Origin: a virus
Lineage: Duplodnaviria; Heunggongvirae; Uroviricota; Caudoviricetes
Strand: one strand, 5' to 3'
DNA length: 18,596 nucleotides
IMG/VR virus record: IMGVR_UViG_2703718820_000014
Part shown: positions 11,375-17,290 of the stretch, piece after piece
Numbering within the stretch: the first letter of the stretch is position 1
Layout of the letters: every line of letters begins with the position of its first letter
Notes under the pieces: generated by a model
Seen by the model: the letters and a program-made list of their open reading frames with translations, nothing else
Told to the model about the DNA's origin: nothing
Databases searched by the model: none
Program-made: the position numbers and the translations under genes

Positions 11375-11420
11375 ATGATTACAAATTTAAATTTAAATTT
11401 CAACTTCTATTTGTAATGCC
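11375..11420. promoter_or_regulatory. Divergent promoter/operator region (OR-like)
   Basis: The operator-like motifs ATTACAAATTTAA (11378-11390) and inverted ATTTGTAA (11409-11416) recur at the early-left promoter. For the cro-like gene: TTGAAA, 16-nt spacer, TAATCA on the - strand. Confidence 0.45.
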
Positions 11421-11471: not shown

Positions 11472-11864
11472 ATGATCTTTGTAAAACGCCTTCAGCAGGT
11501 GTTGCAGGAATTGAATATAAACCAGTCAGAGCTGGGAAGACGTCTTGGTGTAAAACCCCAATCCGTGCAAGGTTGGTTGAAAGGCGTGATGCCAAGAATG
11601 GATAAACTGGAAAAATTAGCAGAGCTCTCACAACATCCCGTCCATTGGTTCTTTATGGAAGAAGAAACTCTCGGCGATAAAATGGCTGTATCCAGTAATG
11701 ACAACCAACCGCAACTTACAGAACAACAACGAAAAATCATATCGCTTTTAGATGAGTTACCTCAAAGCGACGCAGAGCAGATCATTCGTGATATGGAGCA
11801 AAAACGCGATTTCTATAAACGGAAACTTGAAGAGTTACTGCGGCAGAAAAACAAAACTGCCTGA
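11472..11864 (+). CDS. DicA/RacR-like prophage repressor (XRE HTH, no S24 peptidase domain)
   Basis: 130 aa from ATG 11472 with GAGGGG upstream. N-terminal HTH (NQSELGRRLGVKPQSVQGWLKG); C-terminal region resembles DicA as recalled (LLDELPQSDAEQ...EELLRQKNK). Confidence 0.8.
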   Translation: MIFVKRLQQVLQELNINQSELGRRLGVKPQSVQGWLKGVMPRMDKLEKLAELSQHPVHWFFMEEETLGDKMAVSSNDNQPQLTEQQRKIISLLDELPQSDAEQIIRDMEQKRDFYKRKLEELLRQKNKTA

Positions 11865-11894
11865 TGCATTCCTTTTCTGGAACGAGCATCAGGC
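11843..11894 (-). terminator. Candidate terminator hairpin between the convergent repressor and higA-like genes
   Basis: Perfect 9-bp arms gcctgatgc (11859-11867) and gcatcaggc (11886-11894) with a large loop; a T-rich tract follows on the - strand. Confidence 0.3.
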
Positions 11895-11910
11895 AAATGA
11901 CTAGCAGATT

Positions 11911-12270
11911 TTATAATCCAACCAGGCTTTCCAGGGGGATACCAAATTGATTATGAAGACGGCGAATCATTGGTAACGTAAGGCTTCTGGTACCATTCAA
12001 CACCTCATAAACCCGATTTTTTTTCCCAATTGCGGGTTCCAAATCTTTCACAGTCAGCCCCTGCTGTTCCATGCGAAATCTTATAGCTTCAATTGGGGAT
12101 GGTGGCTCAATGGGATAATGTTTTTTTTCATATTCCTCTATTAGCAAACACATCACCTCAAAAAAATCCCCCTCAGGCGTGTCAATTTCGGGCTCATTGT
12201 CGAACATGGGTTCAACAGCACGCAACGCGGCTTCATAATCTTGCTCTGTACGAATAGGTTTGATGTTCAT
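11911..12270 (-). CDS. higA: HigA-like antitoxin (HTH)
   Basis: 119 aa; motifs IKPIRTEQDYEAAL and GLTVKDLEPAIGKKNRVYEVLNGTRSLTLPMIRRL are typical of HigA. It begins 2 nt after the HigB-like stop. Confidence 0.75.
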   Translation of the reverse strand: MNIKPIRTEQDYEAALRAVEPMFDNEPEIDTPEGDFFEVMCLLIEEYEKKHYPIEPPSPIEAIRFRMEQQGLTVKDLEPAIGKKNRVYEVLNGTRSLTLPMIRRLHNQFGIPLESLVGL

Positions 12271-12272
12271 GC

Positions 12273-12575
12273 TTACTCCAGTTCGATGGTATCAGCATCA
12301 ATAGCATCGTATTCCTTGTGGTTTCCGATGAATTTAACAAATACCCATCCTCGCTGATACGCAATTGCAACAATTAAACGGTAATGATTACCTTTTATGT
12401 TGAATACCACGCGCCGGTTTTTCAATATACTGGCCGTTCGGTATTGTGCCTTAATGTCTGCTGGGCTTTTCCAGTCAGCTTTTGCCGCCTCATCCACCCA
12501 TGCCCTTAGCGGTTGTTCTGCATCAGGATTCTCCGCCCAAAAATCCCTGAGTGTTTTAACTGAGATAATCTTCAT
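12273..12575 (-). CDS. higB: HigB-like toxin (RelE/ParE superfamily)
   Basis: 100 aa from ATG 12575; VFNIKGNHYRLIVAIAY...FIGNHKEYD matches the HigB pattern. Toxin-first gene order as in higBA. Confidence 0.7.
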   Translation of the reverse strand: MKIISVKTLRDFWAENPDAEQPLRAWVDEAAKADWKSPADIKAQYRTASILKNRRVVFNIKGNHYRLIVAIAYQRGWVFVKFIGNHKEYDAIDADTIELE

Positions 12576-12581
12576 AACTGT

Positions 12582-12610
12582 ATAGTAGTCCCATTTTGGG
12601 ACTGATGCAA
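12582..12610 (-). promoter_or_regulatory. Candidate higBA-like promoter with embedded palindromic operator
   Basis: On the - strand: TTGCAT (12610-12605), 17-nt spacer containing the perfect palindrome GTCCCAAAATGGGAC (12588-12602), then TACTAT (12587-12582), ending 6 nt before the ATG. Confidence 0.4.
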
Positions 12611-12620
12611 CAGCTCGCAA

Positions 12621-12675
12621 TTACAAATTTAATAATAAACATGTTGACCAGTTAAATTTTAATTTGTAAATTGTA
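12621..12675 (+). promoter_or_regulatory. Candidate early-left (dicB-operon type) promoter with operator motifs
   Basis: TTGACC (12644-12649), 17-nt spacer, TAAATT (12667-12672), flanked by ATTACAAATTTAA (12620-12632) and ATTTGTAA (12662-12669), the same motifs as in the cro/repressor intergenic region. Confidence 0.4.
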
Positions 12676-13002: not shown

Positions 13003-13269
13003 TTAGCACCAGTAAAAACAGGTTGCCACTGGTTAATTTACCCTGAAAAGTCAGGGCACAACAGAAAGCACACGGCGAAGGCGTCTTTTCCTTAGAAGGC
13101 TTGTCGTTAGATTTCTTCGACCGTGTGCTTCCGGTTGTGGCAATCCGCGAAATGGCGCGGCGGTAAATATGGCTGGGGGTTTTTATTTCTTTTCCCCTCA
13201 TTGAGGACACCGGGTTGTCAGGTTGACCATATGCCTGAGTGACAACCCCGCCACAACATCTCCATGTTT

Positions 13270-13329
13270 CAATGGCAGTGGTACCTTTGGCGGCATCAGT
13301 TTATTAGCTTTCTGATGTCCGCCCTTTTT
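13270..13329 (+). ncRNA. dicF: DicF-like small RNA (cell-division inhibitory sRNA of dicB operons); ends approximate
   Basis: Stem ggcggcatcag (13289-13299) pairs with ctgatg-t-ccgcc (13312-13323), followed by T5 (13325-13329). The hairpin and its 3' flank closely resemble the recalled E. coli dicF locus; the 5' part is diverged. Confidence 0.55.
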
Positions 13330-13520
13330 AAAGTGAATTTTGTGATGCGGTGAATGCGGCTAAGCGCACGCGGAACAGTTAAAACCGTAAAGTGGTCTTT
13401 TACGGGGCGTAACGGGCATACTTCTGTATTCCGGCGTTAATTGTTAACTGGTTAACGTCACCTGGAGGCACCAGGCACTGCATCGACAAAGTTCACTTCG
13501 GTGATGAAAGGTAAGAGAAA

Positions 13521-14375
13521 ATGTTGAATGTAGCTATTGAAAACCAGAACGGGTGGAATTATAGTGCACCTGCACCTCATAAAACGGGTGCCGGGCGTGG
13601 AAACCCGATGATGATCAACGCGCATAACCGCGCTCAGGCGGTTTTTTTATGCGTCAAGCACAGCCACATTCAAATTATGGTGGGGCGTGCAGGGCAGCTG
13701 CAAGGCTGGCCGGCTCCGTTGGTCACCGGTATTTCCACCCCTGTACGTCTCACCACCTTTATGGTCGTGGAAAACCTCGGTGGTGAGTTATTTAAACTGA
13801 TCAACGAGGCTGCCATCATGGCTACTACCCTTACCCTTTCTCACCCTGACGTAACCATCGAAAATGGTCGCGCAGTCACCACGTCTGTTGCAGTTGCAGA
13901 GTTCTTCCACAAACTGCATAAAAACGTCATTCAAAAAATTGAAGCTCTGGAATGTTCCGACGAATTCACTGAGCTTAATTTTCAGCCCAGCGAATACACC
14001 GACACAACCGGGCGCAAACTCCCTATGTACCAAATCACCAAAAACGGCTTCGTTTTCCTGGTGATGGGCTTCACCGGCAAAAAAGCCGCTGCATTTAAAG
14101 AAGCCTACATCGCTGAGTTCGATCGCATGGAGAAAGAACTGCGCCAGAATAACGCCCCGTCTCCCGACAAAATGATTCACGGGGACGGACGTACCCTGGT
14201 TATCCGTCTCGACGAACACGGCAATATCAAATTCACTGAAACCGTTCCGGACGGCGCAATGGTCTGCACCCTGGATACCTTCCAGTTTTATCTGGAGAAA
14301 CAAGGCTGGACTCTTGTAAACCGGAGCGCAATTAAAAATATGACTGTGGAGCAATTACTAAAAATTCATTGTTGA
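13521..14375 (+). CDS. Rha-family phage regulatory protein (Rha domain starts near Met at 13818; 99 upstream codons are open in frame)
   Basis: The region MATTLTLSHPDVTIENGRAVTTSVAVAEFFHKLHKNVIQKIEAL...FVFLVMGFTGKKAAAFKEAYIAEFDRME is typical of the Rha N-terminal domain. ATG 13521 has a modest SD; ATG 13818 has GAGG 8 nt upstream. Confidence 0.7.
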   Translation: MLNVAIENQNGWNYSAPAPHKTGAGRGNPMMINAHNRAQAVFLCVKHSHIQIMVGRAGQLQGWPAPLVTGISTPVRLTTFMVVENLGGELFKLINEAAIMATTLTLSHPDVTIENGRAVTTSVAVAEFFHKLHKNVIQKIEALECSDEFTELNFQPSEYTDTTGRKLPMYQITKNGFVFLVMGFTGKKAAAFKEAYIAEFDRMEKELRQNNAPSPDKMIHGDGRTLVIRLDEHGNIKFTETVPDGAMVCTLDTFQFYLEKQGWTLVNRSAIKNMTVEQLLKIHC

Positions 14376-14851: not shown

Positions 14852-17290
14852 ATGAGCACTGATAAAGAAGAATTTTCGCTATATTGCGAAGCAAAAAATG
14901 ACAAGGTCAGAAAACGCCTTGGGATTAAAGGAGGTTTTTACTGGACTACAGCAAAAAAATTATCTGTTGCCATCTCACGGTGCGTTGTTGCAATGGACGA
15001 GGCAGGCTACGACGCTGATGATTTCAAAAAACCTGTCCGCGTCCATTTCCCCGTTGTGAATGACCTTCCACCGGAAGGCGTGTTTGATACCGAATTCTGC
15101 AACCGCTATGAAAAAGGCGGGGAAGATGGCATCACAATGATATTTATAGCGCCTTCCCCCTCAGTTCAGGACAAACCAGCCAGCACTGACAATACCAACG
15201 TCAATGGCGAAGACATGGCTGAGATTGAGGATAATATGCTCCTGCCGATTTCCGGTCAGGAACTGCCCATTCGCTGGCTTGCGCAACATGGCAGCGAAAA
15301 ACCGGTAACGCACGTTTCACGGGAAGAACTTCAGGCATTACATATCGCACGAGCTGAAGAACTGCCGGCTGTTACTGCCCTGGCTATTTCCCACAACACA
15401 AAGCTGCTCGACCCGCTGGAGATTCGCGACCTTCACAAACTGGTACGCGACACAGACAAAGTTTTCCCTAATCCCGTTAATTCCAGTCTGGGGTTAATGA
15501 CTGCTTTTTTCGAAGCATACCTGGACGCTGACTATACCGATCGAGGTCTGCTGACAAAAGAGTGGATGAAAGGAAATCGTGTTTCTCGCATCACCCGCAC
15601 GGCTTCCGGTGCAAATGCCGGTGGCGGAAATAAAACCGATCGTAATCCTGACTTAGTACACACCCTCGATACTCTGGATGTGGAGGCTGCAGCAGCCACA
15701 CTTCCGATGGATTTTAATATTTATGAAATACCCGTGAGCGTTTATCTTCGCGCAAAAGAAATCGTCCTGAAAAAAGAAAGTCCGTTCAGGGAATGGTCCG
15801 CAGCACTTCGCGCAACCCCTGGTATCCTGGACTATTCCCGCGCAGCTATTTTTGCACTTATCCGGAGCGCCCACCCTGAGTTTTATCACTACCCGGGACG
15901 CCTTCAGGGGTATATCAATGCCAACCTGACAGAAACTGATCACGAGAATCCCACAGCTGAAACGCTCATGGCTGCCCGGCATACACCGGAAAAAGATATC
16001 CTGGAAGAAATTAACGGCGGACTGGCTGCTGAGTGCAAAACAGAAGAAGAAAAAAATGATGAAGAAAACCCGCAACCATCTGGCGCAATGGCAGATGAAC
16101 AGGCAACGGCTGAAACAATGGCAGCGGATACAGTTGAACATCATCAGGACCCGCAGCCGCTGGATGACAAGTCACAGGTAAAAGTTACTGCTGAAGAAGT
16201 AAATAAAATTATGGAGGCAGCAGACATCAGTCGACCAGATGCCGACAAATTGCTTGCCGCTTCTCGTGGTGAGTTTGTTGAAGGGATTAGCGACCCGAAT
16301 GATTCGAAATGGGTTAAGGGGATTGAAACCTGCGATTCTGTGAACCAGAACCAGCAAGAAACGGAACAGAACGGTCAGAAAGCGGAACAAAACAGCCCAA
16401 ATGCGTTACAAAACGAGCCAGAAACGAAACAACCTGAACCAGTAGTGCAACAGGAAGAGGAAAAAGTTTGTACCGCATGCAATCAGACTGGTGGTGGTAA
16501 CTGCCCTGATTGTGGCGCAGTGATGGGGGACGCAACCTACCAGGAGACATTCAACGAAGAAAGCCAGGATGAAGCCCGGGAAAAAGATCCGGAGGAAATG
16601 GAAAGTGCCGGACTCCCGAACAAGGAGTGCACCGAAGGCGATCAACATGCCAATGGCAATAATGAAACAGGCGAGACAGCAAATCCCTTAATTAAGGTGA
16701 ACGGTCATCGTGAAATCACATCCACCAGCAGGTTGTGGCACCATCTGATGATTGACCTTGAAACAATGGGCAAAAATCCTGACGCACCAATAGCCTCAAT
16801 AGGCGCTGTATTTTTCGATCCACAAACCGGAGAGCAGGGGCCTGAATTCAGCAAAATAATTGATATGGGTACATGTGGCGGCACTGTAGACATAAGCACC
16901 ATCGAATGGTGGCTTCAACGCTCTGGCGAAGCCCGTGCCGCCATTTTAGCTGATCGAATACCGCTTGATGATGCGCTTTTACAATTACGGGAATTTATAG
17001 ACGAAAACTCCGGTGAGTTTTTTGTTCAGGTCTGGGGAAATGGAGCCAACTTCGACAACGTGATTTTACGCCGTTCATATGAACGGCAGGAGATCCCCTG
17101 CCCGTGGCGTTACACCAATGATCGTGATGTAAGAACGATTGTTGCCCTGGGGCTGGTGATGGATTTCGATGCTCGAAGTGTCATCACATTTGAGGGTGAA
17201 CGCCATAATGCCCTGCACGATGCGCGTTACCAGGCAAAATACGTTTCAGCTATCTGGCAAAAACTGTTCCCGAATCAGGCTGATTTTTAA
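14852..17290 (+). CDS. RecE-N-terminal-like protein with C-terminal DnaQ-like (DEDDh) 3'-5' exonuclease domain
   Basis: 812-aa ORF with GAGGT upstream of ATG 14852. The N-terminal 600 aa contains blocks recalled from Rac RecE ([94 protein letters not shown]). The C-terminal domain has exo motifs [13 protein letters not shown] and HNALHDARY. Confidence 0.85.

Follow-up and report, generated by a model that had tools for sequence, protein, structure and literature searches.

Toxin and antitoxin genes

The stretch analyzed here, referred to as the window, comprises 18,596 nt of lambdoid prophage DNA from Escherichia coli (IMG/VR record IMGVR_UViG_2703718820_000014), and all feature coordinates are window positions. 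Its immunity region carries, on the minus strand between the phage repressor gene and the early-left promoter PL, two short genes that by family are a HigB/HigA toxin-antitoxin pair homologous to HigBA of E. coli K-12. The toxin gene comes first, the two genes are separated by 2 nt, and a single terminator lies behind higA.

12575 to 12273, minus strand: higB toxin gene; 100 amino acids (aa) from the ATG at 12575, with matches to PF09907 and K-12 HigB
12279 to 12276, minus strand: Shine-Dalgarno sequence GGAG for higA, read in the sequence; lies within the last higB codons, 5 nt before the higA ATG
12270 to 11911, minus strand: higA antitoxin gene; 119 aa, in which an N-terminal part precedes the HTH_3 domain at the C terminus (residues 63 to 115)

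HigB matched the Pfam HigB_toxin profile PF09907 over its full length (positions 1 to 74 of 74) with an E value of 4.8e-33 and 113.7 bits, against a cutoff of 27. It also matched the K-12 HigB chains of 5IFG and 5YCL (E = 3e-7, 28% identity) and keeps the motifs that it has in common with K-12 HigB, namely, FN(I/V)xGN, R66, and HKEYD. HigA gave an HTH_3 match in Pfam at residues 63 to 115 (E = 4e-6) and a match to K-12 HigA (5IFG_B) over residues 6 to 112 (E = 3e-9), with 33% identity over 117 aa. K-12 HigB has been proven to act as a translation-dependent mRNA interferase, and HigA neutralizes it (PMC2814082). An earlier note on this DNA had described a HigB/HigA-like pair, toxin first, and had proposed a profile search as a check; that search, which placed the toxin in PF09907 over the full profile and the antitoxin in HTH_3, bears the description out, as do the matches of both partners to 5IFG and 5YCL.

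The gain in annotation is small, since RefSeq already names the pair. The toxin is called "type II toxin-antitoxin system HigB family toxin" and its partner "helix-turn-helix domain-containing protein" or, in a few genomes, "HigA family antitoxin." PHROGs includes both protein families, the toxin family without a label, and a search of NCBIfam returned no match for the HigB or HigA of the window.

The pair was compared with a genome set of 80 homologous loci from Enterobacterales, Pseudomonas, many Betaproteobacteria, and Bartonella (thus from the Gamma-, Beta-, and Alphaproteobacteria), the toxins of which are 60 to 87% identical. A HigA-like gene was found behind the toxin gene in nearly all 80 loci. 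This second gene encodes 118 to 134 aa, without an HExxH extension, and no peptidase-fused long relatives were present among the best 120 HigA homologues. The toxin itself is 100 aa long in 97 of the 120 HigB homologues listed. A longer open reading frame (ORF) that begins with TTG at 12620 and encodes 115 aa was rejected as the toxin start because of this length conservation and because its extra codons consist of the promoter and operator described below. Codon changes were counted between the window genes and two diverged E. coli copies. The ratios of synonymous to nonsynonymous changes were 9:0 (versus strain C5) and 9:3 for higB and 9:2 and 16:3 for higA. Since most codon changes are synonymous, both genes are under purifying selection.

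Predicted promoter and operator of the toxin gene

The region immediately upstream of higB contains a predicted promoter, P_higB, and within it a predicted operator.

12610 to 12605, minus strand: -35 box TTGCAT of P_higB, read in the sequence; TTGC is conserved in the family
12604 to 12588, minus strand: 17-nt spacer, CA followed by GTCCCAAAATGGGAC, read in the sequence
12588 to 12602, not assigned to a strand: predicted HigA operator GTCCCA-AAA-TGGGAC (GTCCCAAAATGGGAC), based on family conservation; occupies the spacer between the -35 and -10 boxes
12587 to 12582, minus strand: -10 box TACTAT of P_higB; TAnnnT is conserved, and 6 nt lie between the end of the box and the ATG
12581 to 12576, minus strand: ACAGTT between the -10 box and the ATG, read in the sequence

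The earlier note had placed the same promoter (TTGCAT, 17 nt, TACTAT) around a palindrome and 6 nt before the ATG, and this arrangement is not only readable in the window but conserved throughout the family. Its description of positions 12588 to 12602 as a perfect 15-bp palindrome needs correction. The site is an inverted repeat with perfect 6-bp arms, GTCCCA and TGGGAC, but the reverse complement of GTCCCAAAATGGGAC is GTCCCATTTTGGGAC, and the site is not a perfect palindrome because its central AAA is not self-complementary (6+3+6). Compared with the sigma-70 consensus, P_higB is weak (3/6 plus 4/6, or 7/12 positions). It was not called in a generic promoter scan, nor was any higA promoter called within higB.

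The motif NTCCC-N5-GGGAN was found upstream of the toxin gene in all 80 genome loci, and in 74 of them the palindrome ends 12 to 13 nt before the start codon. In the 77 loci that could be aligned, the TCCC and GGGA arms are invariant and the three central positions are free. The TTGC at -35 spacing is conserved in the same alignment (T in 63, T in 64, G in 56, and C in 44 loci), as is the TAnnnT directly after the palindrome (T in 72, A in 74, and T in 76 loci). Over about 130 loci, the arms do not vary, and their core shows no compensatory changes of base pairs. The diverged E. coli copies have likewise kept the arms, TAnnAT, and the 6-nt gap to the ATG, and the neighboring bases differ. Invariant arms that lie between conserved hexamers and show no compensatory changes point to a protein site in DNA rather than to an RNA stem.

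The likely ligand is HigA. The helix-turn-helix (HTH) motif NRVYE is conserved in the HigA family; in two loci (L011 and L048) it is replaced by GRVSE or ARVAE, and the arms there are CTCCC and GGGAG. K-12 HigA, which has different operator arms, carries SMVSR at this position. This covariation of the HTH motif with the operator arms is suggestive. For K-12, binding of both HigA and the HigBA complex to palindromes in the higBA promoter is reported in PMC11980606, which cites PMC2814082 and Yang 2016. The family-wide conservation, together with the covariation, strongly supports the placement of a predicted HigA operator inside the promoter spacer of P_higB, as the earlier note had read it. 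Neither this operator nor a leaderless higB was described in the literature searched.

TCCC-N5-GGGA occurs exactly once in the window, and a search for further exact copies, through which HigA might control phage genes, returned none. There are 12 matches with one mismatch (5.8 expected, an approximately twofold excess), and these look unrelated. A second copy of the palindrome lies upstream of the first in 7 of the 80 genome loci, at a distance of approximately 30 bp in one of them (L002); the corresponding position in the window is phage DNA of the left operator (OL). The Pseudomonas CrlTA system was considered as a member of the same family and was rejected since its palindrome is different.

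A predicted leaderless toxin message

The short distance between P_higB and the start codon leaves little room for a leader. With standard sigma-70 geometry, a -10 box at 12587 to 12582 places the +1 position at 12575, which is the A of the higB ATG. Only ACAGTT separates the box from the ATG in the window, and it contains no Shine-Dalgarno sequence. To place this layout in the family, the distance from the end of the -10 box to the start codon was measured in 135 nonredundant loci of genome and viral origin.

5 to 8 nt: 104 of 135 loci
9 nt: 1 of 135 loci
11 nt: 4 of 135 loci
12 to 22 nt: 0 of 135 loci
23 to 40 nt: 15 of 135 loci
no TAnnnT called: 11 of 135 loci

The distribution is bimodal. 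A Shine-Dalgarno-like motif is present 5 to 8 nt before the ATG in 14 of the 15 loci with the long gap. One member of the long-gap class, a 90%-identical variant from IMG/VR viral contigs, has 24 nt with an AAGGA behind TACTAT. The start codon of the toxin is ATG in most genome loci and GTG in 5 of the 80 listed. E. coli has few leaderless genes (PMC8630535); an accepted mark of such genes is that a -10-like signal stands where the Shine-Dalgarno sequence would be (PMC4603805). With the promoter fixed to the operator and the start codon located either at +1 or behind a ribosome-binding site, the short form is best read as leaderless. These comparisons constitute strong, if indirect, evidence for a leaderless higB cistron in the short-gap class, and the near-leaderless toxin start that the earlier note had seen in this one sequence thus appears to be a property of the family. 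Because higA has its own GGAG, the layout would be expected to keep toxin synthesis below antitoxin synthesis.

Beyond annotation, then, the conserved arrangement of promoter, operator, and start codon predicts a leaderless toxin message in more than 100 loci of a proteobacterial subfamily, and it offers a simple answer to the question of how antitoxin excess is reached in toxin-first operons. The leadered variants with Shine-Dalgarno sequences are natural controls for the leaderless form. Among the loci compared, L120 to L126 (IMG/VR) and L134 to L148 have the same operator and -10 box followed by a leader of 23 to 27 nt with a Shine-Dalgarno sequence. The 90%-identical leadered variant also retains a second, distal palindrome.

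Boundaries and distribution of the cassette

Nucleotide similarity to the closest copies outside E. coli (Leclercia, Citrobacter, and Bartonella) covers only the stretch between the promoter (12610/12603) and the end of higA (11918), and the loci are unrelated in sequence upstream of the -35 box. None of the 80 genome loci has homologues of cI, cro, ydaT, or ydfA as neighbors. In another E. coli element, the cassette lies among genes for RdgC, a methyltransferase, and Rha. In some IMG/VR phages it is found between the terminase and portal genes, and its other neighbors there include tail sheath, tail tip, baseplate hub, integrase, and antirepressor genes. In other Enterobacteriaceae (L088 to L092), the two-gene cassette was observed between ybaB and recR, within the conserved dnaX-ybaB-recR-htpG-adk cluster.

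The ydfA-dicB-exonuclease arm of the window is also present in phages Tritos and mEp460. The interval between cI and the ydfA-like gene is 985 bp in the window versus only approximately 200 bp in these phages, where it holds no toxin-antitoxin genes. Homology to phages of other immunity types begins at approximately 12682, just past PL. No deposited phage genome was found to carry the cassette; only the ydfA region matches. The cassette has a predicted promoter (12582 to 12610) and a terminator (11846 to 11896) of its own and lies on the strand opposite to that of cI and PL. By these limits, it appears to behave as a classic moron, a self-contained unit of approximately 0.7 kb. The empty slot in Tritos and mEp460, the homology limits, and the terminator agree with the suggestion in the earlier note that the pair is cargo in the slot between repressor and PL. 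The GC content is 43.6% for higB, 43.1% for higA, 42.9% for the adjacent repressor gene, and 49.2% for the window; since cassette and repressor gene are alike in this respect, base composition gives no sign that the cassette is foreign to the immunity region.

Occurrence in E. coli was counted in 5,426 complete genomes. The RefSeq-annotated pair was found in 148 of these, and the repressor allele of the window was found in exactly the same 148 genomes, each in 149 places. The genomes include O26:H11 11368 and O103:H2 12009. Because the same 148 genomes carry both, the cassette is fixed within this immunity type in E. coli. No empty site was found among prophages with the same repressor in the 148 genomes; empty sites were seen only in phages of other immunity types. 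The immunity type in question belongs to prophages of non-O157 Shiga-toxin-type E. coli (O26:H11, O103:H2, O111, O45, and O121), and should the cassette prove addictive or defensive, prophage retention and superinfection in those pathogens would be affected.

Position in the prophage immunity region

The genes and sites that surround the cassette are as follows.

11088 to 10651, minus strand: YdaT-type CII analogue
11345 to 11085, minus strand: YdaS-type Cro analogue
11472 to 11864, plus strand: DicA-like phage repressor (cI analogue), matched by HTH_3 and a DicA subfamily model; convergent with higBA
11846 to 11896, minus strand: intrinsic terminator of higBA, a hairpin (11896 to 11857) followed by the U-rich tract UUUUGUUUUU; overlaps the 3' codons and stop codon of the repressor gene
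12621 to 12628 (plus strand) and 12662 to 12669 (minus strand): OL half-sites TTACAAAT, flanking PL
12644 to 12649 and 12667 to 12672, plus strand: PL (TTGACC, 17 nt, TAAATT), back-to-back with P_higB
from 12850, plus strand: ydfA, Rha, dicB, exonuclease, and integrase genes

YdaS and YdaT proteins are analogues of Cro and CII (PMC8630535). The repressor gene ends 46 nt from higA. The terminator hairpin between the two genes, listed as inverted repeat I17, has an RNA folding energy of -26.1 kcal/mol (z = -3.6), and none of 200 shuffled sequences was as stable. On the other side of the cassette, 33 bp separate the higB -35 box from PL. Exactly four copies of the 8-mer TTACAAAT are present in the window (0.79 expected), in two inverted pairs, one at the promoter PR (11379 to 11386 and 11409 to 11416) and the other at PL. 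Within the pairs, the half-sites are separated by 22 bp (PR) or 33 bp (PL), a difference of one helical turn. We read these pairs as putative operators of the phage repressor. The OL-distal TTACAAAT site falls between the back-to-back -35 boxes of P_higB and PL. The gene coordinates and those of PL, with TTACAAAT on both sides of it, confirm the location given in the earlier note, between repressor and early-left promoter on the opposite strand. An identical copy of the window adjoins yccA in E. coli strain 48.

In phage lambda, rexAB is accessory cargo that is located between cI and OL/PL and expressed in the lysogen. The earlier note had compared the position of the pair with this slot, and the comparison holds for physical position. 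It does not extend further: rexAB is on the cI strand and is cotranscribed with cI, whereas the window pair is not cotranscribed with the repressor. Nor is rexAB a RelE/HTH toxin-antitoxin system, and it has no sequence similarity to the window pair.

A parallel in context is paaR2-paaA2-parE2 of the cryptic prophage CP-933P (PMC8630535), where a type II pair also lies downstream of a lambdoid cI analogue in a region with Cro and CII of the YdaS/YdaT type. This locus, too, uses a leaderless message, in its case for the repressor PaaR2 (PMC8630535), and it has been proposed to lock or stabilize the CP-933P immunity region against loss (PMC8630535). The CP-933P toxin belongs to a different family, ParE. 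Moreover, paaA2-parE2 is cotranscribed with the repressor from PRM and controlled by it, whereas the window pair lies on the opposite strand with its own predicted promoter, operator, and terminator.

A characterized relative is K-12 HigB/HigA (YgjN/YgjM; PDB entries 5IFG, 5YCL, and 6KML). Like the window pair, it is a toxin-first operon with a PF09907 toxin of approximately 100 aa and RelE fold, and its HigA also consists of an N-terminal part and a C-terminal HTH_3 domain. In both operons, a 6-3-6 inverted repeat (TnCCA-N3-TGGnA) immediately precedes the -10 box. The arms differ, being TTGCCA-ATC-TGGCAA in K-12 versus GTCCCA/TGGGAC in the window. So does the distance from the -10 box to the ATG, which is 31 nt in K-12, with a second imperfect repeat, and 6 nt in the window, where the message is predicted to be leaderless. 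The K-12 operon lies in the chromosome between fadH and rlmG, whereas the window pair resides in a prophage.

Proposed mechanism and role

We consider it likely that the pair is a portable type II toxin-antitoxin cassette of approximately 700 bp and of the K-12 HigBA kind, inserted as a moron between the repressor gene and PL, that works as follows. A sigma-70 promoter would direct initiation to the A of the higB ATG, give or take 1 nt. The higB cistron would then be leaderless and poorly translated, and higA, with its normal GGAG ribosome-binding site, would yield antitoxin in excess despite the toxin-first order. A HigA dimer would bind GTCCCA-N3-TGGGAC via its C-terminal HTH; as the predicted site fills the spacer between the -35 and -10 boxes, binding should exclude RNA polymerase and result in negative autoregulation. 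HigB would be a RelE-fold toxin and, judging by homology, most likely a ribosome-dependent mRNA endonuclease, and the N-terminal part of HigA would neutralize it.

In a lysogen, the main role of the pair would be that of an addiction lock that holds the immunity cassette and the prophage in place. HigB would be set free when the cassette is lost or host gene expression is shut off, and abortive infection would be a possible by-product. The addiction lock is the reading we prefer, by analogy, because of the fixed link to one immunity type and the precedent of paaA2-parE2 (PMC8630535).

Several points weigh against this account. The case for stabilization is one of linkage, which recent common descent of the prophages could explain. 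P_higB agrees with the consensus at no more than 7 of 12 positions and escaped the generic scan, the covariation of HTH motif and operator involves two loci and K-12 only, and the GC content of the cassette (43 to 44%) equals that of the repressor gene. The identity to the characterized K-12 HigB is only 28%. Furthermore, a PF09907-like protein, Salmonella SehA, is reported to inhibit RNase III and not to be an RNase (PMC12817084), a precedent by which membership in the HigB family does not ensure mRNase activity. In PD-lambda-2, it was the HigA-like protein that was toxic, not the HigB-like one (PMC9519451).

An unlikely but serious alternative is that the main job of the pair is antiphage defense by abortive infection, either as a reduced, two-gene relative of PD-lambda-2 or as a classic toxin-antitoxin module. 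An infecting phage would then deplete or inactivate HigA, and the freed HigB would protect the lysogen population. The cassette occupies the physical slot of lambda rexAB and is found in many unrelated phages at varied sites, as is often the case for defense morons. The PADLOC model PD-Lambda-2_A (PDLC03979) matched the toxin with an E value of 1.1e-40 over positions 1 to 96 of 97, and PD-Lambda-2_B matched the antitoxin with an E value of 1.7e-42. PD-lambda-2 (Vassallo et al. 2022) has been validated by experiment and protects E. coli from lambda-vir by abortive infection, and its component A is HigB-like and the N-terminal third of its component B HigA-like, as in the window pair (PMC9519451). 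However, the antitoxin covers only positions 1 to 119 of the 402 positions of PD-Lambda-2_B. The C-terminal ImmA/IrrE-type peptidase domain of component B is absent from the window HigA, and no downstream coding sequence continues it. Also absent is PD-lambda-2C, the P4-antitoxin-like component required for defense (PMC9519451): directly behind higA lie the terminator and the convergent repressor gene, not a third gene. Because the peptidase domain and the third gene are lacking, the window locus is not a PD-lambda-2 system. In addition, toxicity in PD-lambda-2 lay in component B, with A as the rescuing partner (PMC9519451), and the same two-gene cassette is also found in core chromosomal operons.

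A more elaborate proposal, which we regard as quite improbable, combines the leaderless start with the phage operators. Leaderless translation of the toxin would be a selected design rule of this HigBA subfamily that keeps toxin output below that of the antitoxin. The cassette in the window would have been trimmed to a single operator and set back-to-back with PL, with the distal OL operator (12621 to 12632) approximately 50 bp upstream of both predicted transcription starts. Toxin supply would be under the joint control of the phage repressor and HigA, and the pair would be a lock coupled to the lysogenic state that kills cells replacing or losing the immunity cassette.

The activity of the toxin could also differ from that assumed here. 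In Salmonella SehA/SehB, a HigB-like toxin is followed by an antitoxin that also represses the operon (PMC12817084), the same order as in the window. SehA, which belongs to the same broad HigB group and is 40% identical to K-12 HigB, is reported to lack RNase activity and to inhibit RNase III rather than cleave mRNA (PMC12817084). If HigB of the window were SehA-like, it would bind RNase III, block rRNA maturation, and slow growth, with HigA as antidote and repressor, and an identity to K-12 HigB as low as 28% would leave room for such a change. Nevertheless, the window toxin matches the whole PF09907 profile and has kept the motifs of the proven mRNase, K-12 HigB, so that we hold a SehA-like activity to be very unlikely and an mRNA endonuclease the preferred reading.

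Finally, it is hardly credible that the inverted repeat forms a hairpin in the RNA, as part of a 5' untranslated region, with transcription starting further upstream (for example, in the AT-rich OL) and higB translated conventionally: the arms could pair as a 6-bp stem, the P_higB hexamers are weak, and the AT-rich upstream region contains several weak promoter-like hexamers, but the arms are invariant without compensatory changes in the core while the loop varies, the TTGC and TAnnnT flanks are conserved at promoter spacing, the loci have unrelated sequences upstream of the -35 box, and no Shine-Dalgarno sequence fits into the 12 nt before the ATG, whereas loci with a longer gap have one.

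Other features of the window

The arm downstream of PL contains several further elements. Rfam matches at the gathering threshold were obtained for isrK (13572 to 13648) and C4 antisense RNA (13673 to 13760). Both lie inside a 284-aa ORF on the plus strand (13521 to 14375) that RefSeq names a Rha family regulator (Pfam Ash plus Phage_pRha). The interval looks like an antirepressor module in the PL operon, of the P1/P7 c4-icd-ant or Gifsy isrK-anrP type, and the coding sequence (CDS) of the Rha ORF probably starts further downstream than annotated.

Between ydfA and the Rha ORF, approximately 500 nt (13003 to 13520) are without an annotated gene. This segment contains a 19-nt inverted repeat (13057 to 13075 and 13121 to 13139, 89% complementary) and, on the minus strand, a site resembling a terminator (13405 to 13385). 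Tritos and mEp460 have small ORFs between the ydfA and Rha positions, and Tritos also has DicF. Further downstream, the window contains an intact ORF for an 812-aa RecE-like exonuclease (14852 to 17290, plus strand); for its counterpart in strain 48, RefSeq lists a partial RecE pseudogene and a separate exonuclease CDS. Near that end of the window where the late genes lie, positions 605 to 813 on the minus strand gave a full-length match to the gammaproteobacterial small RNA STnc100 (168 bits, E = 1.6e-38).

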